DNA of 58,469 nucleotides, counting the filler, from Squatina squatina (Eukaryota): NCBI GenBank assembly GCA_031763465.1. It is 3 parts of 3 records of this genome, joined end to end, with 100 filler letters (N's around TTAATTAATTAA, not from the genome) between each part and the next. Parts side by side here need not be neighbours in the genome. Positions count along the whole stretch, not along the records: positions 1 to 13,626 come from JARFOE010000234.1; 2 more parts are not named here. One strand, 5' to 3'. Below are positions 1 to 38,580 of the stretch, piece after piece. Numbering within the stretch: the stretch's first letter is position 1; every line of letters starts with the position of its first letter. The notes below the pieces were generated by a model, which had not been told where the DNA came from, made no database searches, and saw only the letters and a program-made list of their open reading frames with translations. Made by a program: the position numbers and the translations under genes.

Positions 1-205
1 CTGGAGTTGGTTACAGGGTTAGGGAGGGGGCGAGGTCCTGGAGGGATTGGAAAACAAGGATGTGAATTTTAAAATTGAGGCGCTGCCGGACTGAGAGCTA
101 ATGTAGGTCAGCGAGTGCTGGAGTGATGGGTGATTGGGATTAGGTGCGAATTAGGATACGGGCAGCAGGGTTTTGGATGACCTCAAGTTTACATAGGGTG
201 GAAGA
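1..205 (-). mobile_element. L2-clade LINE 3' fragment
   Basis: The reverse complement matches the L2 copy at 740-1285 (ctcgctgacctacatt...gcgcctcaattttaaaatt; LADLHWLP-type RT C-terminus). Confidence 0.8.
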
Positions 206-418
206 TGAGATTCCCCGACCAGTGGGCGCTGGAGCAGCAGGAGTACTTAGTCGACACGGATAATAATTATTCATAAAATATTCTGATTTCATTTGCTTTG
301 TTTTATTTATAATGTGAGTGTTTATTGTTTGTGCCCCTTTAAAAAGGGGGCCATTTCTGTTTAATTATCTTTGATTTGAGTTGATGAGACAGAGTGTCAG
401 CCTAATTGGCAATTAAGA

Positions 419-739
419 TTATGATTGGGTAGACGTGAAAAAGATGTTTCCACTTGTTGGGGGGAGACCAGAACGAGGGGCCGTAACTATAAGATAGTCA
501 CTAATAAGTCCAATCGGGAAATCAGGAGAAACTTCTTTACCCCAGAGAGTGGCGAGAATGTGGAACTCACTACCACAAGGAGTGGTTGAGACGAATAGCA
601 AAGAGGCATTTAAGGGGAAGCTCGATAAACACATAAGGGAGAAAGGAATAGAAGGATATGGTGATCGGGTGAGATGAAGTAAGGCGGGACGAGGCTCGTG
701 TGGAGCAGAAACACCAGCATAGACCAGTTGGGCCGAATG
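419..739 (+). mobile_element. CR1-clade LINE 3' end, interrupted by an L2 insertion
   Basis: Typical CR1 ORF2 tail (aggagaaacttctttacccagagagtgg...tggaactcactacca) and 3' UTR ending gggccgaatg. The tail resumes at 1286 (gaatggcctgtttctgtg). Confidence 0.85.
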
Positions 740-1285
740 CACTCCAGGCTGGCCTTCCACATTCCATCCTACGTAAACTTGAGGTCATCCAAAACTCGAC
801 AGCCCGTGTCCTAACTCACACCAAGTCCCGTTCACCCATCAGCCCCGTGCTCGCTGACCTACATTGGCTCCCGGTTAAGCAGCGCCTCGATTTAAAAATT
901 CTCATCCTTGTTTACAAATCCCTCCATGGCCTCGCCCCTCCCTATCTCTAGTCTCCCCCAGCCCCACAACCCCCCGAGATATCTGTGTCCCTCTAATTCT
1001 GCCCTCTTGACCATCCCTGATTATAATCGCTCAACCATTGGTGGCCGTGCCTTCAGCTGCCTAGGCCCTAAGCTCTCTAATTCCCCGCATAAACCTCTCC
1101 GCCTCTCTTTCCTCCTTTAAGACACTCCTTAAAACCTGCCTCTTTGACAAAGTTTTTGGTCGCCTGTGCTAATTTCTCCTTATGCGGCTCGGTGTGAAAT
1201 CTTTTGTCTTATAACTCTCCTGTGAAGCACCTTGCGATGTTTCACTGTAACAAAAACGCTATAGTGTTAATGGCAAGTTGTTATT
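740..1285 (+). mobile_element. 5'-truncated L2-clade LINE
   Basis: Encodes LRKLEVIQNSTARVLT...LADLHWLPVKQRLDLKILILVYKSLHGLAPPYL and GGRAFSCLGPKL. Ends in an L2 tail (...cgctata...gcaagttgttattg). Confidence 0.9.
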
Positions 1286-1565
1286 GAATGGCCTGTTTCT
1301 GTGTGGCACATTCTATGTAATAAAGTAAATGTTTCAACGGGTGCTTTTAATTCCATGGGGAGCAGTAAGAGAAATCACCAACAAAAGATGAGAAAGATAG
1401 ATAAGTAAAGCCCACCCCACCCCTCCTCCCCTCACACGAGGAACACATCAACAAGCTGCATGAAGATCAAGATTCCAGCATTATTGGGAACATTTGGATC
1501 TGTGTTTAATGTGGGGGGGAAACCAAATGGGAAAAACTACTATTCTGAAATGCTCTGCATCAACT

Positions 1566-1718
1566 CCTTATTTGGTAGCCTGCTGAAGCTGTACTCTTGT
1601 CTTGTTCAAACATTCTGGACTATCCCCCAAAGTCTGGCTTTGGGAGGTCAGCCTGACTCAGCCTCCCTTGTTTTTCTTTGTCATAACTCGATCCTACAAC
1701 GCTCCTGCCCTTTTAAGG
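1566..1718. promoter_or_regulatory. Paired SRF CArG boxes flanking an AP-1 site
   Basis: CCTTATTTGG (1566-1575) and CCTTTTAAGG (1709-1718) both fit CC(A/T)6GG. TGACTCA lies at 1654-1660. The surrounding sequence is non-repetitive. Confidence 0.45.
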
Positions 1719-2105
1719 AGTGCCTTTCCTTTTTGCAGACTGCGAGTTGTTTTTTTCACCCCCCACCCTCCTCCTTTCCCTCCTCCTCCTCCTTCCCCTT
1801 TCAGCTTCGACTGAACTTCTGCCTCTCGCTGTGAAACTTTAAAAAAAAAAGGCTGCAAAATCCTAAATCAGCCACTGCCTCTCGCACTCCATGTTTGAGT
1901 GCCTCGCTACGTGTCACATTATTTAACCTGTTTGATTGCCTTCACTGTGCCAAAGGTCATATTTGAGGCTTTTTTTAAAAAAAAGTGTTAACTTGCAATC
2001 TGCTCNNNNNNNNNNNNNNNNNNNNNNNNNNNNNNNNNNNNNNNNNNNNNNNNNNNNNNNNNNNNNNNNNNNNNNNNNNNNNNNNNNNNNNNNNNNNNNN
2101 NNNNN

Positions 2106-2850
2106 CCATCGCTTCTTTCCAGGAGGTCACAGAGGCTCTGTACTCCAGGAGAAGGGACTTCATTTTCTGCTCTTTGAACAGAGAGAAGCAGGAGGAGTGC
2201 ACCGGTGGCTTTACCAGGATATCAGGCTTCACCATGGTGCAGGGCGCCATCGATTGCACGTGTGGCTTTGTGGGCACCACATATCAATCCTGAGATGTAC
2301 CTCAACCACAAAGGCTACTACACACTGAATGTGCAACCCAGCACATCATGATGGTGAATGCCCAGTATCTTGGCAGCAGTCATGATGCCTTCATCTTGCG
2401 CCAGTCCAGTGTGCCTGCAGTCTTCCAGCCATCACGTCAAACCCGATGTTGGCTGCTCTGTGACAAGGGATATCCACTCTACACCTGGCTCATGACTCCC
2501 CTCCTCAATCCCACCGCTCGTGGCCAGCAATCATATAATGACAGTCATGCTACAACGTGGTACGTCATTGAGCAGACCGTTCGAGTTCTAAAGCAATGGT
2601 TCCGCTGCCTTGACCGCCCGGGAGGAGTCCTCCAGTACTCGCCGGAGCGTGTGTCCCATTTCGTGGTGGTCTGCTGCATCCTCCACAACTTGGCCATCAT
2701 AAGGGCGCAGCCCTAGCCACCACAGGTTCCGCGACCACCTCAGGAGGAGGATGAGGAAGAGGAGGAGGAGGAAGGGAGGAGACAGGCAACAGATCTCCAT
2801 TCCGGATGGGATGTCTGTGAGCACTCCATCAGACTCTGGTTCCAATGAAT
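2106..2850 (+). mobile_element. Degenerate PIF/Harbinger DDE transposase (HARBI1-like)
   Basis: Motifs VQGAIDCT, NHKGYYTLNVQ, YLGSSHDAFIL, LLCDKGYPL..WLMTP, VIEQT...LKQWFRCL and CCILHNL, interrupted by frameshifts and stops, followed by an acidic tail. Confidence 0.9.
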
Positions 2851-3361
2851 GATAGCCCAGATCCTCACTGTGCAACACTTCCCCAACTTGCCATCCCTCA
2901 TCACAGTGGCAACAAAGCTGAAATGAGAGCCACCACAAAACAAACGTTCCAAACATAATTTATAAATTTGTCAATCCAAAGTCAACTAATCACTCTTGTG
3001 AATTCCTTTCATGCTTGTCTTCAATGTTTCTTTGCCTGTTGTAGTGCTTGTACAAAGCGCTATCCCAGTGTCTGCAGCATGGCTGGTGGAAGGCTGCTGA
3101 CTTTCAGTGGGGGAGACTGCGAATGGCCTTGCAGGATGACCTTGAAGGCCCGGCTGCGGGCTGCACCATCTCGGCATGGGAGGCAGCAGTCTGAGCTGGC
3201 TGGCTGACAGGCAACAGCAAGGGCACCGGCGGACTGGCAAAGGGTGGGAACACAAATGCTGTCTTCTTGAGAGAGGACAGCAGGTTCATGCTCCATGGAG
3301 CCACTGCCACTCGCCCCCCTGGATGGCACCTCAGCAACCCGAGTAATCAGTTGGAGGACAG

Positions 3362-3486
3362 ACTCGCTGCGGAGGCGGGGGAGGCGTTTGCTAGTGCTGT
3401 TAGGGAGGGTTTAAACTAGCTTGGCAGAGGGATGGGAACCTGAGAGTAGATTCAGAAGGGAGAGAAGCAAAGCTGGAAATGGAAGG
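3362..3486 (+). mobile_element. CR1 ORF1 end / inter-ORF fragment
   Basis: tttgctagtgctgttagggagggtttaaactag followed by ttggcagagggatgggaacc is characteristic of the end of the CR1 ORF1 esterase domain. Confidence 0.6.
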
Positions 3487-3724
3487 NNNNNNNNNNNNNN
3501 NNNNNNNNNNNNNNNNNNNNNNNNNNNNNNNNNNNNNNNNNNNNNNNNNNNNNNNNNNNNNNNNNNNNNNNNNNNNNNNNNNNNNNGAGCAGGCTCGAGG
3601 GGCCGAATGGCCTACTCCTGTTCCTACTTCTTCTTATTGTCTAATAGCCCATCCGATCCCAGAGTGGAGCCATAGCGGAGAGCATCCAACAGTTACTTCA
3701 ACGAAATAAATGTTGGACACCTAC

Positions 3725-3900
3725 CTTCAATATAGACCTCAGCGGATGTGGTGTCTGATCCAAAGCAGTTGGTGGCTGTACACGTGTATCGACCCGTGTC
3801 GTCCTCGAAAGCTTCGGCAATGGCTAAAGTATCGAGATCACCATCCTGGAATATCTGGATGTCCGGGGAGTTTTCCAGCTCTTTCCCCTCACAGAACCAT
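3725..3900 (-). CDS. PALLD: Palladin (myotilin/palladin/myopalladin family) first Ig domain, internal exon
   Basis: Acceptor ccacag|A and donor G|gtagg; 176 nt, phase 2 to 1. Encodes (R)WFCEGKELENSPDIQIFQDGDLDTLAIAEAFEDDTGRYTCTATNCFGSDTTSAEVYIE(G). WFCEG, EDDTGRYTC and DTTSAEV favour PALLD over MYPN. Confidence 0.8.
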
Positions 3901-4713
3901 CTGTGGATTTGGTCAAACAGAAATAGAGGTTGTTATTTCTCTCCTTTTTTTTTTACATACCAGCAGCCAGAGGAAAACTTTGACAAGCGAGTTTGAAGCA
4001 AAGTCAATAGCGTGCCCGAGTTTAGACAGCTCGTTGAAAGGGCAAGGAGAAGCCTTGACTGCTTCAGCCGACAACCTTTACGATAGCAGGTGCAAATTCC
4101 AGTGAGAATAAAAAAGCTCCAGTCTTACAGCTGTCCTGCTTAACTTGCCAGAGCCCTGCAGTATTCTCTTCAAGCCACGCCTTTCTGCATATTAATGACA
4201 TGCAAATGCACTTTATGTTAATGACGGGTTGCGCTATGTAACTAAAGCCAACTCATCTGGCCAGTTCGTTCAAAAGAGCTAGTTGACAAATAAAATGAAT
4301 GAGGCTGATTCCAATTGATGTGATACTACAGGAAGAAAGGGCCGATTAGATAATAGATGTACTAAAGTACAGCATAGAGCAATACTATTAGTTGCCTAAT
4401 TGGTGCAAACTAAGAGCTAGTGTCAGGGTTTAATGCTCTCAGACTGCAATATTCCGCATTTTTTCATGGGGAGGGGTTGCTCAGCCAGTTGACTGAAACC
4501 AAACCCTAAACAAGAGAGAACTGCGCACAACAAGAGTTTTCCTTTGTCTGATATCTCTGTAATCTCCTCCAGGCCTGCAACAACAACTTGTACTTGTATA
4601 GCGCCTTTAACGTNNNNNNNNNNNNNNNNNNNNNNNNNNNNNNNNNNNNNNNNNNNNNNNNNNNNNNNNNNNNNNNNNNNNNNNNNNNNNNNNNNNNNNN
4701 NNNNNNNNNNNNN

Positions 4714-4822
4714 CACCTTAAATCTGTGTCCTCTGGTTCTCGACCCTTCCACCAATGGGAACAGTTTCTCTCGATCTACTCTGTCCAGACGCCTCATGGT
4801 TTTGAACACCGCTATCAAACCT
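4714..4822 (-). mobile_element. CR1 ORF2 C-terminal fragment
   Basis: Translates to IAVFKTMRRLDRVDREKLFPLVEGSRTRGHRFKV, a CR1 C-terminal motif. Confidence 0.85.
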
Positions 4823-4939
4823 CTTCATATATACACATGCATTCGATATATATAATATATTCAAACCCAATCAATTTATTCATGTTAGAATAGCAAAAAG
4901 TAGAATAATGATGACACTGGCTAAAGAGGTGAGATTGAA

Positions 4940-6235
4940 TTAAAAGGTTCTTTTCTTGCTTTTACAGATGATCTTCTGAAAGGCTCGCCTGAAGCCCTGG
5001 TTGAAGATGGTGTTGCTGACAGGGTTCAGGGATCTGTTGCAGTAGCCGATCCAGAAAAAGAACTTGACGAGAGTCTCGGGGATCTCGCAAACCTCCCGGC
5101 AGATCCCGTACAGGCTGTAACTGAAAAAGAAAGGGAACCAGCAGAGCACGAAGATGCTCATCACCACAGCCAGAGTGAAGGAGAGCCTCTTCTCCCTGGC
5201 CTGGGAAGCTTTGCTCTTGGACATGGTGTGGCCCCGCCGCTTCCTCCGCGTGGAGAACACGTCGAAGGACCTGTTGCTGGAGCGGGAGATGCGGCTGGAC
5301 CTCTTGGCGAAGGAGTCTTTCCGGGCAGCCACCCTGCCCCTCTTCCTCTGCTTCTTGGAGGCTCCCCCCTTCTTGCGCCCCTTGTCCTCCGAGGTCGAGC
5401 TCTCCTCCAGCTCGATGTCCTCCGGCTGGGTCGGCGGCTGGCGGCCGGGGCTGGCGGTGCAGTGGCCGTTCTCCTTCTCCCCTTCTTCCTTGAAGGAGGT
5501 GGCCCGGCTGGGACCTTCCTCGGTCTGGGAGGAGCCCTCGGGGCCGTTCCTCTTCACCGACTGGCTCCTGGTCCGGTGCTTGGCCACCTGGTAGATCCGG
5601 ATGTACACCAGGATCATGATGAGGCAGGGGGTGAAGAAGGAGCCAATGAAGGAGAGCAGAATGTAGCCACTGTCGTTGCTGAGCTTGCAGGCTGAGTAGG
5701 TCTCATCCTCAATCTCCCGCTCCATGGATATCAAGGGTGGGAAGGAAATCACCGCCGAGATAAGCCAGACCGTGACAATGGCGCACTTGATCCTCCTGGG
5801 GGTCCTCTTGAGGTTGTACTCTACGGCTTTGATGATGGACCAATACCTGTCCAGGCTTATGGTGCACAGGCGTACGATGGAGGAGGTGCAGAACAGCATG
5901 GCCAGAGACAGATAGATGTCGCACCACACCGTCCCGAAGTACCAGTAGCCCATCAGCTCGTTGGCCAGGGAGAAGGGCATCACCAAGGTGGCCACCAGGA
6001 TGTCCGCACTGGCCAGGGACACCAGGAACAGGTTCTGGGGAGGTCGCAGGGCTCGGCTGGTGAACACGGCGATGATGACCAGGACATTCCCCACGATGGT
6101 GAAGAGGATGAGAAAGCCCACCAGGGCGGACAGCCCGGCGATGGCCCCCAGCGAGTACTGGCCAATGTCGGGCGCAGGGTCGACGGAGAAGAGGCGGGAG
6201 GTGTTGATTGCGGTCGCGTTCGCCGATAGCTCCAT
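4940..6235 (-). CDS. ADRA2C: Alpha-2C adrenergic receptor-like GPCR, intronless, 431 aa, with key residues substituted (possibly a young pseudogene)
   Basis: Strong Kozak gccgggATGG at 6233-6235 and seven TM segments. [60 protein letters not shown] and [10 protein letters not shown] are subtype-C signatures. The ORF is open to TAA at 4940. Confidence 0.9.
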
Positions 6236-7054
6236 CCCGGCGAGAGGGCTACAGCCCTGTCGGCATGACCAACACCCAGCTCCCACCACACCCCCCCAAA
6301 AAAAACACAGCAACCAAAAAATAGATTGAAAAATCGGACAGTTACTTTGCGATGGACCTCCTCCTTCTGCCCAACTCCCCCAACTTTTCCAGGGGACAAT
6401 TGGGGCTTTCACCCAGACTCTGATCTGAAGAGTTGCATTTCCTTCTCATTTTCAGATGCGGAGAGAGTCGAGCATGAGCCAGTCTGCTGGAATTCTCACA
6501 CCCAGTCAAGATTTGCTCATTGCTGCCAGAGTAACAGATGCTTCAGTCCCAGATAGATGCCAGTTGGAGATCCAACGAATATCTTCAGCCTCCAGACCCA
6601 TCAGTGGGATGGGTAGATGGTGGAGATGGGAGGGCGAGATGGGGCGTTCGTGCACCCCCGACTCCTGCTGTATCTCGGTCCAGGCGCTTGCTCTCATTCA
6701 CCTTTTTTGGGGGAAGGTTTCTTTGTTCTCTCTCTCTTCCTCAATCCCTCTCTCCTTCCCTTTCTCCCTCTCTTCCTCCTCTCTTTCCTCCCTCCCTCCT
6801 TCTCCTTCCCTCCTCTTCGCGCTCCACCATTTTGAGGATGCGCCGATTCAACTCTGTTACAGCTCCCAAACGGGGTGCTGGGCAATTTCGTGCTGAAAGA
6901 GTCTGCAAAGGGATATAGACAGGTTAGGTGAGTGGGCAATAAGGTGGCAGATGGNNNNNNNNNNNNNNNNNNNNNNNNNNNNNNNNNNNNNNNNNNNNNN
7001 NNNNNNNNNNNNNNNNNNNNNNNNNNNNNNNNNNNNNNNNNNNNNNNNNNNNNN

Positions 7055-8040
7055 CCTCTTCCCCACCCTCAGTTTCCCCTCTTCCCCACTCTCGGTTTCC
7101 CCTCTTCCCCGCTCTTGGTTTCTCCTCTTCCCCACTCTCGGTTTTTCCTCTTTCCCATTCTTGGTTTCCATTCTTCCCCGCTCTCGGTTACCCTCTTCTC
7201 CGGTTTCGGTTTCCCCTCTCCCCTACTCTCGGTTTCTCCGCTTTCGGTTTCTCTTCTTCTCCGCTCTCAGTTTCCTTCATCCCCACTCTCGGTTTCTCCT
7301 CTTCCCCGCCCTCGGTTTCCCCTCTTCCACTCTCTCGGTTTCCCCGCTCTCAGTTTCCCCTCTTGCCTGTTCTCGGTTTCCCCTCTTTCCCGCTCTTGGT
7401 TTCCCCTCTTCCCCACCCTCGGTTTCCACTCTTTCCCGCCCTCAGTTTCCCCTCTTCCCCTCTTTCAGTTTCCGCTCTTCCCCGCCCTCGGTTCACTTCT
7501 TCTTCGCTCACGGTTTCCTGTCTTCCCCGCTCTCGGTTTCCCCTCTTCCCCGCTCTCGGTTTCCCCTCTTCCCCGCTCTCGGTTTCCCCTCTTCCCCACC
7601 CTCAGTTTCCCCTCTTCCCCACTCTCGATTTTTCCTCTTTCCCACTCTTGGTTTCCCCTCTTCCCCGCTCTCGGTTTCCCCTCTTCCCCTCTCTCGGTTT
7701 CCCGTCTTCTCCACCATCAGTTTCCCCTCTTGCCTGCCCTCAGTTCCCCTCTTCCACACTCTCGGTTTCCTCTCTTCTCCGCTCTCGGTTTCCCCTCTTC
7801 CACTCTCTCGGTTTCCCCGCTCTCAGTTTCCCCTCTTGCCTGTTCTCGGTTTCCCCTATTTCCTGCTCTTGGTTTCCCCTCTTCCCCACCCGCGGGTTCC
7901 CCTCTTCCCCACCCTCGGGTTCCCCTTTTCCCCACCCTCTGTTTCCTCTCCTCCCAACCCTCGGGTTCCCCTCTTCCCCACCCTCTGTTTCCCCTCCTCC
8001 CCACCTTCGGGTTCCCCTCTTCCCCCGCCCTCGGGTTCCC
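7055..8040. repeat. Pyrimidine-rich minisatellite, ~23-bp unit CTCTCGGTTTCCCCTCTTCCCCG, about 40 copies
   Basis: Tandem units are directly visible. The array begins at a gap edge, so it is truncated. Confidence 0.95.
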
Positions 8041-9820
8041 TGAATCTGCAGGGTCCTGTGACTCTCCTTGTCTTGCTACACGTTCGCTCCTCCTCTGCAG
8101 TACTGTGTATTTTTCCATTTTGAGTGGGGATAATTTTTAAAAGCAAAGATTTTTATCTTTTAGTTAATTTTGAAAGGGCTCATATAATAGAGAAGCTGCA
8201 TAATATTCTTCATTGTATCATGTGACCGCTCCAGATGTGCCTGGCTGAATATCTCATCAGCAAGATATGATTAATAACCATTTACAGTGGCATCTCAAAC
8301 CTGAAGCTTGCAAATATTTCTGCAGTTAGGAAGACCAGCATGAATCTTTAGCTGAGTATAAGCATTAAAATGTTTAATGTATTGTTGCAATCACCACTAT
8401 ATGACTTTTACCTCTTCAGTTCTGCACAACAGGTTGAAAATGCAGCTGTTTTTTCTCAGCAATGGGAAGAAATGATGTCCTAGATTTAATACTGTCACAC
8501 ACAGGTGGGATATGTTTCTTATCACTTTTCTGGGTAATGACAAGTATTATCGCAAATAAACATATATATATCACATCTACAACTAAACTAGGAGATAGAA
8601 AATCCATAACACTTTCTGTTTAGCCCTTGTTTGTCATCAGTCACATCACTGTAAATTCTTCAAGTTCTGTTAAAATGTGCTTCAAAAAAAAATCTAATCC
8701 TCTTTCCGTGGGTGGTTTTCTGTAATCCGTGCAGCTATATCCAGACTGCCTATCAAACAACCTGTTTAGTTATTACATACATACTATGAACCTGCCTAAG
8801 ACGTCCATATTTGCCATTATTTTCACTTGGAACCGAGGTTTTCTATGTTGCACCGTGATTTTTAATGACACTGAGATGTCCTGATTCTCTGTTCAGATGT
8901 GATCTACTCGCTTGCTAATTCTCTTAAAAACATTTGTGCACATATAATAAAAAGGGTCTTCCTCTTTCATCAGGCACATCAGATACCAGTTTGAATTCTG
9001 AGATGCTTGGGAGTGATGGCATTTTTTTGTTCTGAAACAGTGGACCAGATTACTGTAAAAGTAACACTGAGGCTAACAGCACTCATCATTATTTATACGC
9101 AAATGGTGACTTCAGGTGAAAATCCTGAAGTTGCTGTAAAAGATGCACCACTCTGTTGCTTGCTTCACGAAAACAGCATCTCGTTGCCTGCCTCTCTATT
9201 CAAATGTACTGAACAGCGTGATGGTCCTGTACTGACATCGCAGTTATGGACTAAACTTGCCACAGAAAGTTAGAGCTTGTCCATTTCAATCTAAGTACAC
9301 TTTTTAATGGTGTGATAAGTCTTAATTACCGCCAAACAACCTTTCTGGCACTGTGTGTGGAGTCTCCTTCAGATTTTAGTTGTTGAAGATAAAATTAATA
9401 GTGACCTAGGTGCTCAAGATACTTTAACAGAGTATAACAAGAAGCAGGATGTTCCATTTTTGGTGGGAGGAGGGTTATTTGCATCTCTGGGGGATGGAGA
9501 GAATGTAAATATTTCATTACTCAGTGTGTTGCCTCAGTACATGCTGAGACATTTAACTTGTGTTGAGAGGAATTAAACAGCAGTTTTAAAAAAGCTTGTT
9601 GGCCACTTTGTATACTTNNNNNNNNNNNNNNNNNNNNNNNNNNNNNNNNNNNNNNNNNNNNNNNNNNNNNNNNNNNNNNNNNNNNNNNNNNNNNNNNNNN
9701 NNNNNNNNNNNNNNNNNAAACATCTGAACTGTAACAGTGGAATATAATCGTTACCCCACCCTTTCCATTCACATGGGGCTATCAAACGGTTAACAATCCC
9801 ACAAACTCTGCATTACTCAC

Positions 9821-9985
9821 TCTCCGAGTCATCGATTCCACTGTCACCAGCGCTGATAGCACCCAGCCTCTTCATTTGGTTCAAGTGCTCCTCGTACTGA
9901 GCACCAGTGTTCGCAGAGCAGGAGAGGTCTTCGATGACCAAGTTGAATTCATTCAGGACAGCATCAAATTCATCCTCATTCCACA
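9821..9985 (-). CDS. RGCC: RGCC (RGC-32)-like internal exon
   Basis: Acceptor tttcag| and donor A|gtgagt; 165 nt, phase 1 to 1. Encodes WNEDEFDAVLNEFNLVIEDLSCSANTGAQYEEHLNQMKRLGAISAGDSGIDDSE, matching the RGCC motifs L.EF..V..D, YEEHL..MKR and DSG..DSE. Confidence 0.75.
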
Positions 9986-10159
9986 CTGAAAGTTATTTTT
10001 TAAAGTCACATTTGGTTAAGTTATTTTGCTAAAATGTAATAGTCATAACATGCTCACACTGACATTTAAAAAAAATCCCTCTGCCATTTAATATCAAACA
10101 ATTGAACTGTACTTTGTAGGTTTTGTGATTCACTCCATACAGTCATTTCCTAGCTTAGG

Positions 10160-10368
10160 GGGTCAGCCGTAGCTCTGTGGGTAGCACTATCACTTCTGAG
10201 TCAGAAGGTTGTGGGTTCAAGTCCCACTCCAGACACACCAGCACATAATCCAGGCTGACATTCAGTGCAGTACTGATGGAGAGCTGCACTGTCGGAGGTG
10301 CCATCTTTCAGATGGGATGTTAAACCGAGGTCATGTCTGCTCTCTCAGTGGACATAAAAGATCCCATG
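10160..10368 (+). mobile_element. tRNA-derived Deu-domain SINE (SacSINE1-like), 5' part
   Basis: Pol III A/B-box head (ggttcaagtccc) followed by the Deu core (tctttcagatgggatgttaaaccgagg...taaaagatcccatg). Truncated by a gap. Confidence 0.8.
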
Positions 10369-10699
10369 NNNNNNNNNNNNNNNNNNNNNNNNNNNNNNNN
10401 NNNNNNNNNNNNNNNNNNNNNNNNNNNNNNNNNNNNNNNNNNNNNNNNNNNNNNNNNNNNNNNNNNNNAGTTTAATAGTTGTTTATATGTTTTAACTTGA
10501 TTTCTCTCAAAAGAGTTCCTGACTGCTCACTTCAGTCAGTTCACAGCAGAAACATAACAGCATACAGTCCCTGCTCACAGCTCCCTTTTTACTGCTCACA
10601 GCCTCTCAGCTCACTGCACAAAGTCTCTCAGCCCCTGTTCACTGCGGGCTTGACTGTTACTGTTGTGACTCGGCTCACACAATTCCATCCATCCGTCCG

Positions 10700-11240
10700 T
10701 CCATCCATCATCCTTGACCCTTGCACCAGGGAGCTCATTTGCGGCCACAGAAACGCCTATCTATTCCCCTTATAATAGAATCCCCTATCACTATAGCTCT
10801 CCTGTTCTTGTTCCTTCCCTCCTGTGCAGCAGNNNNNNNNNNGTGCCATGAACTTGGCTGCTGCTGCGTTCCCCTGATAAGCCATCTCCCCCAACAATAT
10901 CCCAAGCATATATCTGTTTGAGAGCAGGATGACCACAGGGGACTACTGCACTACCTGCCTTCTTCTGCTGTACCTAGCGGCCACCTGCCTGTGCAGTCTT
11001 TACCTGCGGTGTGACCAACTCACTAAACGTGCTATCCACAAAGTCCTCAGCATCACGGATGCTCAATTGTATATCCATTCGCAGCTCTAGCGCCGCAATG
11101 CAGTCTGCCAGTTGCTGCAGCTGGATACACTTCTTGCACACATTGTTGTCAGGGACACTGGAAGTGTCCCTGATTTCCCACATAGCGCAGGAGGAACATT
11201 CCACGGGGCTGAGCTGTGCTGCCATGAGTTACCCTTTAAT
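10700..11240 (-). mobile_element. CR1 ORF1 remnant (Zn finger / leucine zipper leading into esterase)
   Basis: MAAQLSPVECSSCAMWE...VCKKCIQLQQL...IAALELRMD is the CR1 ORF1 N-terminus. A downstream RGIDRRFCG fragment matches the esterase domain. Confidence 0.8.
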
Positions 11241-11715
11241 TAACTTAAATTGAATTAAATCAAATCAAAGCCCACTAATTATACTACTATTAAATGATAT
11301 TAATTACTCAAGGGCCCTTGTTTACTAGACTCATCACTTACATCAGTGAGGGGAAGGTCGACAGAGTTTTCTGCTTCATTCGCCTGGCCGAAGCAGAATT
11401 CCGGAATATCTATCACCACCAAAACCGAGGTAACAAAGAGAAGGGAAAGAGACACAACAGCTTCCATCTTTGATGGCCATCAACATGTCCTGATACCCCA
11501 CCATTCATCTCATGCACCAGGAACCACTGGAGCATGAGACTGGGATCAGCCCTGTGGATTGAGCAGAATTCCCCATATGCACTACTGGCTTCTATTTTCA
11601 ATTTTACAAACATANNNNNNNNNNNNNNNNNNNNNNNNNNNNNNNNNNNNNNNNNNNNNNNNNNNNNNNNNNNNNNNNNNNNNNNNNNNNNNNNNNNNNN
11701 NNNNNNNNNNNNNNC

Positions 11716-11815
11716 AGGGTACTGAATTTGGATGATCAGCTATGATCATATTGAATGGCGGAGCAGGCTCAAAGGGCCGAATGGCCTACTCATGCTCTTA
11801 TTTTCTATGTTTCTA
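11716..11815 (+). mobile_element. CR1 3' tail
   Basis: gatcagctatgatcatattgaatggcggagcaggctcaaagggccgaatggcctactc followed by a ttctatgt-type tail. The same tail occurs at 3587-3630, 17027-17085 and, reversed, at 18334-18434. Confidence 0.8.
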
Positions 11816-11942
11816 TATAATGCGGGGGCTATCAATATAAAACTGTTACTAAGGGACTGAGGGAAGGGGTTAGGAGAAATTTCTACCCAGAGGGTTTCTG
11901 TAGCTTAGAATGTTTTGCCAGTGTTTAAAAAAAAAATCATCA

Positions 11943-12311
11943 TCAATAATATCTTCTTGGTCTCCAGGGACCCTGGTATAGGGGTAACTCTGCTGCCACG
12001 CTGCTCCAGTACTCCACAGACTTGAGCTGCGAGTTGCTCTTGTAGTGTGGGTTCTCGGACAGCATGTCCTCAATGAAAATGTCCTCTGGCACGGGCAGGA
12101 ACACGCAGGAGTTGGGGCCGATCTTGCTGAATTTGGAGGCGTTTGGCCGCCGGTGCCGGAAGCCCAGGCTGTCCCCATCCTCGTCACTTGCCGAGCTGGT
12201 GTTCCACTTCTGCTTGGGGGTCCGGCGGTGGTACTTCCTCCTGGCGGCCACCACCTTCTTCCGGCTCTTGACCTTCTCGGCCCTCTTCAGCGACGGCTTG
12301 GAAAGGTGTGT
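11943..12311 (-). CDS. Putative terminal coding exon of an unidentified gene (122 aa, basic then acidic)
   Basis: Acceptor ctcttttgtcatttgccag| followed by an open frame with strong GC3 bias: THLSKPSLKRAEKVKSRKK...ENPHYKSNSQLKSVEYWSSV...RRYY*. The protein is not recognised. Confidence 0.55.
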   Translation of the reverse strand, partial: THLSKPSLKRAEKVKSRKKVVAARRKYHRRTPKQKWNTSSASDEDGDSLGFRHRRPNASKFSKIGPNSCVFLPVPEDIFIEDMLSENPHYKSNSQLKSVEYWSSVAAELPLYQGPWRPRRYY

Positions 12312-12370
12312 CTGGCAAATGACAAAAGAGTCAGTATGTCAGATCTTCCGATAGACCTTGTCCCCAAACT

Positions 12371-12588
12371 TACAGCACTGTACAAGGTGTGTAGATACAC
12401 CGTACCCTGGGTACAGCACTGTACAAGGTGTGTAGATACACCATACCCTGGGTACAACACTGTACAAGGTGTGTAGATACACCATACCCTGGGTACAACA
12501 CTGTACAAGGTGTGTAGATACACTGTACCCTGGGTACCGCACTGTACCAGGGGTGTCGATACACTGTACCCTGGGTACAACACTGTAC
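12371..12588. repeat. 41-bp minisatellite (TACAGCACTGTACAAGGTGTGTAGATACACCGTACCCTGGG), about 5.3 copies to the gap
   Basis: Units start at 12371, 12412, 12453 and onward. The array runs into the gap. Confidence 0.95.
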
Positions 12589-13028
12589 NNNNNNNNNNNN
12601 NNNNNNNNNNNNNNNNNNNNNNNNNNNNNNNNNNNNNNNNNNNNNNNNNNNNNNNNNNNNNNNNNNNNNNNNNNNNNNNNNNNNNNNNGTCTCTCCCCCG
12701 TGTTTCCCCTGCCTTCCACTTTTGCTTTCTACTGTTCTTACTTTCATTTCTGTCCTTGTTTCCCTTTCCTTTGCCTCCCTGCTTAGGTTCCCACCCCCCT
12801 GCCATTCTAGTTTAATTTCTCCCCGACAGCATGCCACAGTTGTGAAAAGGCTGTGGGGGAAAGGGGTGTTAGTCCTTCAGTTACACGGGCTAAAAAAGCT
12901 AACGGGGCAAGTTTTCTAATGACCGGTAGCTGAAGTTACAATCTTCTCATACAAGTATGGAAACTTTGAAGATAAGTCCCACAGAGGACAAGTACATGTC
13001 GTACCACTTATAACTGTTGGCACCTTAC

Positions 13029-13137
13029 TTGGACTTCTTGATAGGCAACAACATCTGGGAAATTTAACGATGATGAGGTTCGAAAACTGCGCCGTGAGTT
13101 CCAGCATCACCAGGACAAGGTTGAGGAATATCACATC
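13029..13137 (-). CDS. Candidate exon of an unidentified gene (hydrophobic stretch followed by CCC)
   Basis: Acceptor ctgacggtctctctcag| and donor A|gtaagg. Only one frame is open: DVIFLNLVLVMLELTAQFSNLIIVKFPRCCCLSRSP. Read-through would stop at 12916. Confidence 0.4.
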
Positions 13138-13670
13138 CTGAGAGAGACCGTCAGCAGGAATGAAGGTATTACAGTTAAAACCACTGTCTGAAGTAATTCA
13201 GACAGACTTTTATAGAACAATAATTGTGTTCTCATCAATTAAAAAAAAATGATTTCAAAGTTACTGTGGGCTTGTAGTCACGGTCCTGAGCAAGTTGTGC
13301 ATGATAATTGGATATTCTTTGCAGATTGATGGAGATTTGCATATTCACTTGAGGGGCAAAAGCATCTGTCCTTAAAATTTGGATCAAGAATTTCAAACTT
13401 ACCACTCGGTCCATGCGATCACCAAGTCTGGTTTCGATCGTCTGAGGGGGTTGGAGAGGAATTTTCCAGAGTATTTTTTCCCTTATTGGCCCAGGGTTTC
13501 TGCTGCTCCAAGGATTTTATGTGACTGCGGGGGAGGAAGTAGGAAGTGTCTAGTCATGATGCTCTGACCATCATGGTGTGGGGAAGGCTAGATTGAACAG
13601 CTGATCTTTTCCTGCCTGTCAATTGTNNNNNNNNNNNNNNNNNNNNNNNNNNNNNNNNNNNNNNNNNNNN

Positions 13671-14305: not shown

Positions 14306-14493
14306 TTGTTAAGTAAACAGCGTTCTATTGGAGTGAATCACTTGAGCAGTAGTGGCGAGACGCCACTTCACATCGCTTGTCGACTGGGGAAAACTGATGT
14401 AGCCAAATCCCTACTCCATTGCCAAGCCAGTTGTAATATTGTTGGATCGCAGGGTTATCCAATCCATACATCCATGAAGTTCATCCAGGCTGG
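14306..14493 (+). CDS. PLA2G6: Calcium-independent phospholipase A2 beta, ankyrin-repeat exon
   Basis: Acceptor ttgcag| and donor GG|gtaag; 188 nt. Encodes LLSKQRSIGVNHLSSSGETPLHIACRLGK...ASCNIVGSQGYPIHTSMKF, matching iPLA2b (TPLHLACQLGK...ARCNIMGPNGYPIHSAMKF). Confidence 0.9.
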
Positions 14494-16777: not shown

Positions 16778-16868
16778 GATTTGATGATATCATAGCGATT
16801 GCCACTGTGGTCGGGTCCTTGTCAAAAGGGCTGGATGCTACAGACTCTGATGGATATATGCACCGGAG
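16778..16868 (+). CDS. PLA2G6: PLA2G6 linker exon preceding the patatin domain
   Basis: Acceptor ctgttttcag| and donor AG|gtgaga; 91 nt, phase 1 to 2, compatible with the previous exon on the same contig. Encodes (G)FDDIIAIATVVGSLSKGLDATDSDGYMHR. Confidence 0.65.
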
Positions 16869-20428: not shown

Positions 20429-21242
20429 TTACAAGTCACTCATCTCCAATGTCCCATTTTTACTTGGTAAGACTTCATTGGGAACCTTCTGCTCAGAGCT
20501 TCTGCCCAGCAGGCTGTCTTGTACCTGCGCCTTTTGGGTGATATTGTTAACGTGGCACATCTCCACATAGGTGTTGCCCGTGCCCCTGCTGCCCAGGCTC
20601 TTGTTGTCCACTTTCCTGGTGGCGCGGCACAGGGTCTTGCGGAAGCCTTGCTTGAAGTTGTCCGAGAGGAAGCCGTAGATGATGGGGTTGGCGCAGCTGT
20701 TGGTGTATGACAGGACCACCACAAAGAAGTAGACCCTCATCAGGGCGGGCTCCATGGACACGGAGGACACCAGGTTGACTATGTTCATCACGTAGAATGG
20801 CAGCCAGCAGAAGACGAACACGGCCACCACGGTGACCACCATCCAGGTCAACCGGCGCTCCGATTTCTTCCGCTTGGTGGATGTGGCCCTCACCTTCCTG
20901 CCAGAGGACTTCACTTTGATCACAATGAGAAGGTAGCAGAGGCAAATCACCAGCAGCGGAGCAAAGAAGCCCAGGGTGGCTGTATAAATGATGAAGGCCG
21001 TAGACCAGACGATAACGGGCTCCGGCCAGTTGATGTTGCAGGTGTGCATGCCGATCTTCACGTCTGAGAAGATGACAACTGGAAGGGCCACCACGAAGGA
21101 AATGGCCCAGACCATTGTATTGATGATCTTAACCACGCGGGGCTTGCGCCACTTAATGGACTTCACTGGGCGGACCACCGCAAAGTACCTGTCGATGCTC
21201 ATTGCAGTGAGGCAGAAGATGCTGGTGAACTGGTTGATGCTG
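20429..21242 (-). CDS. SSTR3: Somatostatin receptor 3, TM3 to C-terminus (5' part lost in gap)
   Basis: [22 protein letters not shown]...[47 protein letters not shown]. Neighbouring CDC42EP1, GGA1 and PLA2G6 fit the SSTR3 locus. Confidence 0.88.
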
Positions 21243-22919: not shown

Positions 22920-23343
22920 ATGAGTTTGGGAAAGTTGCCCGTCTTCAAGAACCTGGTGTCCAACTCCCACGGCAAGCGCAGGTTCAAGTCAGAGCTGACC
23001 CCTGACATGATCAGCTCGCCGCTGGGCGACTTCCGCCACACCATGCACGTGGGCCGGGGCGGCGACGTGTTTGGCGACACCTCCTTCCTCAGCGACCACG
23101 GCGGGGAGAAGGCGCGCGAGAGCGCCAAGTCCAACCTGCTGGTCCGCGCACTGAGGAACGTCAGGAAGGTGCCGATGAGGAGCCGGAACAGCAGCCGTGA
23201 GATGTCCCCACCGCCGGTAGTCTCTCCCATCATCAAGAACGCCGTCTCTTTGCCACATCTGTTGGAGGCAAAGAATGGGTCCGTGGAACGGCTCAATTTC
23301 AAAAGCGTGGTGTCAAGTCCAGGTGTGATGGATGGATCATATG
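22920..23343 (+). CDS. CDC42EP1: Cdc42 effector protein 1 (Borg5), first coding exon
   Basis: MSLGKL start, CRIB motif ISSPLGDFRHTMHVGRGGDVFGDTSFL and BH motif SPIIKNAVSLP. Donor TAT G|gtaaat lies at the conserved SY(G) junction. Confidence 0.9.
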
Positions 23344-24002: not shown

Positions 24003-24103
24003 GAATTATAAAACAGGATCCGGTGTTACCTGATGACGAGCCGCTTCCTCCACCCCCTCCTCGATCGAAAAATGCTATGTTTGAAGATGAGGAAAAATCG
24101 AAG
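24003..24103 (+). CDS. GGA1: GGA1 exon (VHS-GAT linker)
   Basis: Acceptor ccgcag| and donor AAG|gtaact; 101 nt. Encodes (G)IIKQDPVLPDDEPLPPPPPRSKNAMFEDEEKSK; compare human GIVKSDPKLPDD...PPPRPKNVIFEDEEKSK. Syntenic with CDC42EP1. Confidence 0.85.
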
Positions 24104-28114: not shown

Positions 28115-28251
28115 TTTGTTCCGACTGAAGGCGACCGGGCGTGTGTCAAAGTACTTCGAGACGTTGAGCCCGGAGATGAGATCACCTGTTACTACGGTGA
28201 CAGTTTTTTTGGTGAAAACAATGAGCTGTGCGAATGCTACACATGTGAAAG
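28115..28251 (+). CDS. KMT5C: H4K20 methyltransferase SUV4-20H2, SET/post-SET exon
   Basis: Acceptor gacag| and donor AG|gtgagg; 137 nt. Encodes [45 protein letters not shown](R). FVP..G, KVLRD and PGDE favour KMT5C over KMT5B. Confidence 0.85.
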
Positions 28252-29024: not shown

Positions 29025-29206
29025 ACGAGGAGAAGGAGCCTTCAGGATGAAGAAGCGTGACATTGAGATGGACGCCCTCTGTAGGTATGGACTGAGAGAG
29101 ACCGACAGTCGCTTGAGTCGTATGAAAGAGAAATGCAAAGGAAGACGGCCCAAGGCAGCGCATGTTGATTTGTACCAGAAAACCCTGGAAAGGCCGTTGT
29201 GGCAAA
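29025..29206 (+). CDS. KMT5C: KMT5C exon following post-SET
   Basis: Acceptor ccag| and donor A|gtgagt; 182 nt, phase 2 to 1. Encodes RGEGAFRMKKRDIEMDALCRYGLRETDSRLSR, matching the GEGAFR and Y.LRET..RL motifs. Confidence 0.85.
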
Positions 29207-37357: not shown

Positions 37358-37602
37358 GTTCCCTGAACCTGATCCAAGCCACACACTGGAGGAACGGGTC
37401 GTGCACTGGTACTTTGGTCAGCTGGACAAAAACGGCAGCAACAACATCCACAAGAAGGAAATGAAGCCGTTTAAGCGTTTCTTGAGGAAGAAAGCCAAGC
37501 CAAAGAAATGTGGACGGAAATTCACCGATTATTGTGACTTGAATGAGGACAAAACCATTTCACTGCATGAGCTGAAAGGATGCTTGGGAGTAAAAGAAGG
37601 AG
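37358..37602 (+). CDS. SMOC1: SPARC-related modular calcium-binding protein 1, second EF-hand (EC) domain exon
   Basis: Acceptor gatgcag| and donor G|gtacgt; 245 nt. Encodes (R)FPEPDPSHTLEERVVHWYFGQLD...EMKPFKRF...KKKAKPKKC...FTDYCDLN.DK.ISL.ELKGCLGV-type sequence. COX16 in the same block supports SMOC1 over SMOC2. Confidence 0.9.
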
Positions 37603-38580
37603 GTACGTGGCTATTATAATTAAAACGATCAATTAACCACTGCAGATTAGACAGAAACACAGCAATACCGACAGAACCATTACCATTTGTACCTTTCAGC
37701 ATTGGCAAAATATTTAACATGGGTGAGTTACATTTTAGTCAAATGGAAAAAGGCATTCTAACTAAAATGAGCTGCCATCTCTCGGGCCCATAGATTTTCT
37801 GTCTCTCTCCTCTCTATTGAAGGCACTGACTCATTTATGTGCATCAACTATCCAATCTTTCATTGAATCTGAAGACCTTTTTCAGACAATATTTACAAGT
37901 ATGTTTCAGTACTGTTGTCTCTTATGGATTCGTTAGAATATCTGAAGTCCATTCATTCCATAATCCTGTAACACTCAGTCTAAAAATGTACATAGATCAT
38001 CTAGTAACTCTTGATAAGCAAGCTACATGACGACTTTACCTGAACAGCAGCTCTCAACCTTGGTTGAAACTAGAGAAGGAAGCTGCTTTCCCTCTGCCTC
38101 AGCGCTGCCTTCTTGTGCCTTCAGCTATCCTTNNNNNNNNNNNNNNNNNNNNNNNNNNNNNNNNNNNNNNNNNNNNNNNNNNNNNNNNNNNNNNNNNNNN
38201 NNNNNNNNNNNNNNNNNNNNNNNNNNNNNNNNATCCCCCCCCCCCCACCCCCAGAGAACCACTCTGTTTTCCATTGTTTTTCTTGCCAATTTTCTCTCTT
38301 TCTCTTCTCTTGCTGGGTGCAGTTTCCATGGTTACTGATATCTTGCCCAAGTGGCCATTCTTCATGTGCGAGCCTGACAATGATTGTCAGCAAACTGTTT
38401 AACTATGGTGGCTGGCATAAGCCTTGGAAGATTTCCCATCTATCTAGCCCAAGGTCTACACTTGGTCGCACTCCNNNNNNNNNNGCACTCCTTTCCGATC
38501 ATCAATCTAAATGCTTACATCTCTCTGCCATTGGCAAGGCAACTAAACTAACCTTTGACCCTTTTGTCTTTTCTCCGCAG

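Follow-up and report, generated by a model that had tools for sequence, protein, structure and literature searches.

The ADRA2C-like gene of Squatina squatina (assembly GCA_031763465.1) encodes an uninterrupted α2C adrenoceptor that lacks both Asp3.32 and Tyr7.53, and its changes are confined to four or five short tracts, a pattern that is new here. Our preferred reading, held tentatively at a probability of about 0.45, is that the gene is a decaying duplicate whose sequence forms a patchwork with an intact copy, through either gene conversion or merging of the copies during assembly. The window that we analyzed, 58,469 nt including filler, consists of three parts of three records joined by 100 Ns, and adjoining parts need not be genomic neighbors. 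Positions 1–13,626, which carry the gene, derive from JARFOE010000234.1.

The open reading frame (ORF) lies at 4940–6235 on the minus strand and comprises 431 codons plus a stop in an intron-free coding region (PF00001, E = 2e-63). As the original prediction had described it, the frame is uninterrupted and begins in a strong Kozak context, with G at both −3 and +4 of the ATG. It contains no stop or frameshift over its 431 codons and so lacks the disablement by which pseudogenes are recognized. The assignment to ADRA2C is borne out by the best solved chain, which is human α2C (PDB 6kuw), by the best 120 of 2109 protein matches, which are α2C, or α2, wherever a subtype is named, and by a quick tree, with partial sequences as outgroups, that places the ORF inside the cartilaginous-fish ADRA2C clade (SH-aLRT 95). 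Judged by sequence, the gene is an elasmobranch ADRA2C by descent, apart from ADRA2A, B, and D. For its place within the elasmobranchs, five topologies fall inside 2.8 log-likelihood units, and we lean toward a squalomorph origin.

Best local alignments with the ADRA2C proteins of Heterodontus francisci (XP_067885090.1), Heptranchias perlo (XP_067838198.1), and Pristiophorus japonicus (UPI00398ED6E4) give 76 to 81% identity, and the Heterodontus protein, which is among the best 120 of 2109 matches, is 77% identical over the full length. No identical protein was present in the collection searched. The ORF shares its length, N terminus, TM1–TM2, ICL2–TM4, ICL3 motifs, and C-terminal tail with elasmobranch ADRA2C and human α2C. 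An AlphaFold2 model built on a 16-row alignment was uninformative (pLDDT 39.6). Around the frame, an AATAAA signal lies ≈55 bases past the stop within 4714–4885, followed by an AT-rich run and then what we take to be a LINE fragment, and the 719 bases before the start contain eight upstream ATGs, none of which lengthens the ORF.

Every substitution named in the original prediction is present in the assembled sequence exactly where it had been placed, and together with those that we add, the changes fall into clusters, all on the minus strand. The TM3 cluster (5861–5908) consists of A3.30S, D3.32A (GCC, 5900–5902), V3.33M (5897–5899), H3.42R (5870–5872), and A3.45T (5861–5863). In ECL2–TM5 (5630–5722) we find D172E, P181S, N186S, D187N, T5.36S, W5.37G, C5.43F, and A5.49T, with Ser5.42 and Ser5.46 kept; T5.36S and W5.37G could reflect one small compensated frame slip. 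The TM6 cluster (5153–5185) contains F6.33L, T6.34S, V6.36T, G6.42S, and V6.43I. The changes in TM7–helix 8 (4994–5068) are F7.35V, S7.46R (5033–5035), I7.52S (5015–5017), Y7.53N (AAC, 5012–5014), and D8.49G, so that the ORF reads NPVSN in place of NPxxY and carries Arg7.46 besides. Eleven of these, namely A3.30S, N186S, D187N, A5.49T, F6.33L, T6.34S, V6.36T, G6.42S, V6.43I, F7.35V, and D8.49G, had gone unlisted before. The contrast originally drawn for TM5 stands in part: the changes in that helix are real, but Leu5.41 is not private to this gene, being the normal residue in elasmobranchs (17 of 17 rows). The residues reported as retained, D2.50, DRY, CWFP, S5.42, S5.46, and Y7.43, are all in place, as are N1.50, W4.50, P5.50, Y5.58, P6.50, P7.50, and both disulfide cysteines. 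All seven x.50 anchors, the TM3–ECL2 disulfide, DRY, and CWxP are therefore kept, and the catechol-side residues S5.42, S5.46, F6.51, F6.52, Y6.55, F7.39, and Y7.43 are unchanged.

Our comparison set consisted of 126 other ADRA2C rows, namely the best 120 of 2109 matches and six cluster members. The ORF departs from this set at 14 of 140 invariant columns, as against a maximum of 4 and a mean of 0.23 when each of the others is left out in turn, and at 20 of 206 columns that are 95% conserved. Where the ORF has Ala3.32, Asp is found in 126 of 126 rows and in 105 of 105 fragments spanning the site; where it has Asn7.53, Tyr is found in 126 of 126 rows and 16 of 16 covering fragments. These fragments came from a shorter-length search, of which 120 of 197 matches were listed. 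Neither key change was seen in a relative (0 of 126 full-length rows, 0 of 105 fragments for 3.32, and 0 of 16 for 7.53), and no listed match was named as dogfish or angel shark. Unlike elasmobranch ADRA2C, then, the ORF lacks Asp3.32, Tyr7.53, Ser7.46, Trp5.37, Phe7.35, and a further 15 highly conserved residues, each retained in all or almost all of the 126 rows. Its overall pace is ordinary (36:33 against Pristiophorus, p = 0.81; 32 changes in 302 positions versus 33 for Narcine and 29 for Hemiscyllium). What is odd about the ORF is the location of its changes, not their overall speed. Among the relatives themselves, ADRA2C of Narcine bancroftii and Mustelus asterias reads CWSP in TM6, and the Narcine protein has eight changes at 95%-conserved sites, six of them within the same helices, with Asp3.32 and NPVIY kept.

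Between the altered clusters lie tracts with no conserved-site change at all, also on the minus strand: codons 26–109, covering TM1, ICL1, TM2, ECL1, and the start of TM3 (5909–6160), and codons 126–171, covering DRY, ICL2, and TM4 (5723–5860). ICL3 (5207–5569) is likewise unchanged at its 18 highly conserved sites and evolves at a rate resembling that of related sharks. Under a grouping of helices that tracks the known pocket and activation helices but was chosen post hoc, conserved-site changes number 20 of 116 in TM3, ECL2, TM5, TM6, TM7, and helix 8 versus 0 of 90 in TM1, ICL1, TM2, ECL1, ICL2, TM4, and ICL3 (p = 5e-6, or 2e-5 when the two sites that first drew attention are excluded). Clustering tests that need no grouping are weaker, with p values of 0.0004 (10 of 19 neighbors ≤3 residues apart), 0.007, 0.011, and 0.05. 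The opposite tendency is seen among the 126 comparison rows, whose infrequent changes split 85 to 64. As a protein-level proxy, in which rates are counts among living sequences, these figures describe constraint that is relaxed in TM3, ECL2, TM5–7, and helix 8 and normal elsewhere; compared with Pristiophorus, the spared parts are no faster (1:3, 0:3, and 6:12).

The CpG signature noted in the original prediction is real: 6 of the 20 changes are G>A after C. Within the altered helices, 6 of 12 CpG targets have changed versus 14 of 104 other sites (p = 0.006), whereas in the spared parts none of 17 has. Residues shared with somatostatin receptors and residues found in ADRA2C only are affected about equally (5 of 36 and 13 of 69), and the substitutions cannot be called clearly more conservative than random ones (BLOSUM mean −0.10 versus about −0.6; p = 0.07–0.13). 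From their sequence pattern, the changes within the altered helices look mutation-driven and unselected. With one choice of tracts, third codon positions also appear decayed (A/T-ending, 18 of 102 versus 27 of 281, p = 0.047; NNT-G, 6 of 11 versus 4 of 28, p = 0.017). This co-occurrence with amino acid changes is absent from five control α2 loci, which were drawn from a metagenome scan (5 of 234 stretches, 45–66% identity) and serve as a codon-position control only. The synonymous signal is fragile, with 2 of 30 distance-based tests at p < 0.05 and, after exclusion of ICL3, 0 of 12; third-position decay tied to the altered tracts is a hint, not proof. GC-biased conversion was considered and set aside, as the weak-to-strong and strong-to-weak changes inferred from codon reading are about even.

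Loss of the Asp3.32 carboxylate removes the salt bridge to the amine, and without Tyr7.53 the active-state bridge between Y5.58 and Y7.53 cannot form. Ser7.46 is presumably a residue of the sodium pocket. Because D3.32 and Y7.53 are lost along with S7.46, F7.35, W5.37, and five TM6 residues, the ORF product is predicted neither to bind catecholamines nor to signal in response to them, and to be a poor activator. Engineered receptors altered at the same positions support the original prediction that a normal catecholamine response would be missing: agonist activity is notably reduced by D128(3.32)A in human α2A, while surface expression stays normal (PMC8896805), and the active state of β1 requires both Y5.58 and Y7.53 (PMC7200737). 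Those mutants carry single designed changes in other subtypes, whereas the ORF combines more than 20 natural ones. Among the residues expected of a working α2 receptor, Asp3.32, Tyr7.53, and Ser7.46 are missing, and the catechol-side set, DRY, CWxP, D2.50, Y5.58, and the disulfide are present.

A receptor that still signals with a shifted, non-catecholamine ligand, another suggestion of the original prediction, fares poorly, and we consider it distinctly improbable. The changes do line the pocket (3.32, 3.33, ECL2, 5.43, and 7.35), and a study of teleost clade III TAARs describes aminergic-type receptors that, like the ORF, lack Asp3.32 and nevertheless bind amines (PMC4695389). As described there, however, those TAARs gained Asp5.42 (84 of 85), whereas the ORF has Ser5.42 and has lost three acids with none gained in the pocket; the absence of a compensating acid argues against a new amine ligand. 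The catechol-side residues are moreover unchanged, and the activation switches Y7.53 and S7.46 and the G protein face of TM6 are altered too.

The local context of the gene bears on its origin. It sits on a contig of 2241 bases (4714–6954) with a 100-N gap on each side, in a window that 42 N-runs, most of them exactly 100 bases, divide into 43 pieces. Because the contig spans just 2.2 kb between gaps, its neighbors and order are unreliable. Elasmobranch ADRA2C lies on a large chromosome, unlike the ORF, which stands beside an SSTR3-like block in the joined stretch; and because, among the matches listed, 16 of 16 elasmobranchs that have both genes carry the ADRA2C and SSTR3-like orthologs on records that differ in length, the contig appears to be misplaced or transposed. 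The SSTR3-like ORF itself, 14 kb off in the joined stretch, is the 3′ part of a control gene (20429–21241, minus strand) whose 5′ part is lost at a gap and whose shark orthologs are labeled SSTR5-like in databases. It is changed at 10 of 153 invariant columns, whereas 20 other elasmobranch rows average 0.8 and reach at most 6, and a second fast receptor suggests that the cause lies in the region, the lineage, or the assembly. Its 21 changes in 221 positions compare with 21 in Narcine, 29 in Rhinoraja, and 4 to 9 in sharks; against all 120 SSTR matches listed it is no outlier (2 of 52, others maximum 2), its changes are unclustered (p = 0.32–0.38), and its frame would survive neutral decay 8 to 29% of the time. 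The private changes of this ORF at near-invariant sites are H>R after DRY, A>V in TM4, and G>R and P>S near ECL3, and six changes fall within ten residues at ECL3 and the top of TM7. A second control, a SPARC-type EF-hand exon that is presumably from SMOC (about 37358–37604, plus strand), is changed at 1 of 43 to 48 conserved sites when compared with all 55 rows; against the 26 closest rows, none of them a known shark, it shows 3 to 5 changes away from the exon end.

The original prediction raised the possibility of a young pseudogene, a view that is not supported as stated. Its plain form, a sole copy or duplicate decaying uniformly with its frame open by luck, draws on the CpG-type, unselected-looking changes, on redundancy among the four α2 paralogs, of which ADRA2D has been lost twice according to a vertebrate survey (10.1101/106526), and on the often dominant-negative action of truncated GPCRs, by which the appearance of stops could be postponed (PMC3477067). 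Simulations seeded with the ORF's own coding sequence and calibrated to 20 conserved-site changes count against it. Under uniform decay, ≈5% divergence is needed, at which the probability of an open frame is 0.0002 to 0.034 with indel ratios set between 1:8 and 1:30 (the ratio seen among repeat copies in the window is 1:11), and the probability that the spared parts show no change is about 1e-5. Because the open frame and the 0 of 90 spared sites are both improbable under uniform neutral decay, a plain young pseudogene fits badly and is very unlikely. When the altered helices alone are allowed to decay, divergence reaches 9 to 10% and the frame stays open with a probability of 0.005 to 0.06. 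Two explanations are left for such low values: selection has preserved both the open frame and the spared parts, or a decayed and an intact copy are pieced together in the sequence.

In the patchwork that we prefer, a lineage-specific duplication would have been followed by loss of constraint on one copy, in which mutation-driven changes would have accumulated, beginning with CpG transitions. Codons 26–109, 126–171, and most of 203–350 would then have been restored by gene conversion, with the intact copy as donor, or substituted when a short-read assembler merged both copies. Conversion or merging would explain the patchiness and make the open frame less unlikely. Consistent with this, the altered helices look unselected in both their CpG bias and the equal involvement of class-wide residues; binding and activation residues are lost together with no new Asp or Glu in the pocket; third-position decay accompanies the amino acid changes under one tract choice; and the second fast receptor, the odd position of the contig, and the gappy 43-piece assembly suit such an origin. 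A Greenland shark preprint reports lineage-specific duplicates and retrocopies, and the 81 duplicated genes that it lists may be relevant to the number of ADRA2C copies (10.1101/2024.09.09.611499). Against the patchwork, the 58,469-nt window holds no second ADRA2C copy, decay of the altered helices alone still leaves the frame open just 0.5 to 6% of the time, tract borders must coincide with the pocket and activation helices by chance, and the synonymous signal is fragile. Moreover, the SSTR3-like changes are unclustered and no faster than in some rays, the SMOC-like exon is normal, and polyploidy in sharks found no support in one study (PMC11024215).

A ligand-blind, activation-dead α2C kept by selection as a heterodimer partner or scaffold, a reading also raised in the original prediction, is a close rival, though we hold it to be somewhat less likely. 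Selection would have ceased to constrain the pocket and activation but continued to preserve the frame, TM1, TM2, TM4, and the inner loops, and the protein would tune intact α2A, α2C, or β2 receptors as GPR50 does MT1. This account draws strength from the contrast between 0 of 90 and 20 of 116 conserved sites while rare changes in the 126 rows go the other way, from the 17 unchanged CpG targets in spared parts that are no faster than in Pristiophorus, from an open frame that is improbable under every neutral model run, and from the retention of the x.50 anchors, disulfide, DRY, and CWxP. There is also a precedent: GPR50, the mammalian ortholog of Mel1c and likewise of class A, lost its ligand through relaxed selection on part of its sites (≈28% neutral), kept its frame, binds no melatonin, and suppresses MT1 in heterodimers (PMC2323367). 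GPR50, a model for this alternative only, differs in being fixed across mammals, expressed, tested, endowed with a new long C-terminal tail, and a member of another family, whereas the ORF is known from sequence alone. A review offers a handle in α2A/α2C heterodimers, which blunt GRK and arrestin action at α2A, and in spinophilin, which binds ICL3 (PMC3290771). Set against these points are the post hoc helix grouping, with grouping-free p values of 0.0004 to 0.05, core class A residues changed as often as others within TM3–7, Arg3.42 and Arg7.46, which may harm folding, changes shared by 0 of 126 rows and by 0 of 105 (3.32) and 0 of 16 (7.53) fragments, and the second fast GPCR in the window, which demands a separate cause. 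That a normal ADRA2C is hidden by consensus errors or DNA damage in an assembly of low-coverage short reads is unlikely. The assembly is highly fragmented, every cluster is shorter than a read, and the ORF is GC-rich (59% versus about 40% for most of the window). However, the density of at least 22 base changes far exceeds that of usual consensus error; they come with no indel or stop and with strong CpG enrichment, the equally GC-rich TM1–TM2 and ICL3 tracts have none, and the SMOC-like exon is clean.

The vertebrate α2 survey describes four paralogs with only ADRA2D lost (10.1101/106526), and the open-access literature yielded no report of an ADRA2C pseudogene or an Asp3.32-less α2 receptor in cartilaginous fish. 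If kept by selection, the gene would be an example, in a vertebrate, of a naturally occurring adrenoceptor that has no amine-binding Asp, of which we found none in the open-access literature. It would then also offer a direct test of hormone-independent α2C jobs through dimers or loop partners, with evolution mapping the helices and surfaces that those jobs need (TM1, TM2, TM4, and the inner loops). If it is instead a patchwork duplicate, it would be of modest interest for gene turnover in sharks and would serve as a warning that paralogs can be merged in gappy assemblies.

Other features of the window include an Ig I-set exon (about 3700–3880, minus strand), an ankyrin exon matching PLA2G6 (14306–14493, plus), a CRIB exon (22920–23340, plus), and a GGA1 exon (24003–24103, plus). 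We take the Ig I-set exon to belong to palladin/myopalladin and the CRIB exon to CDC42EP1, and we assume that human 22q13 joins PLA2G6, SSTR3, CDC42EP1, and GGA1. Contig order over 3587–37616 looks reference-guided, with chromosomes mixed. Exon-like open stretches occur at about 11950–12310 (minus), 16778–16868 (plus), 28115–28251 (plus), and 29025–29206 (plus); Pfam gave no match for six candidate exons, and ESM Atlas returned nothing usable for the exon at about 11.9–12.3 kb. A fragment of a DDE_Tnp_4 (Harbinger-type) transposase lies at 2294–2713 on the plus strand (E = 7e-20), and the contig adjoining the 5′ end of ADRA2C carries a purine/pyrimidine-skewed tandem array of ≈40 units of 23 bases (7055–8040).
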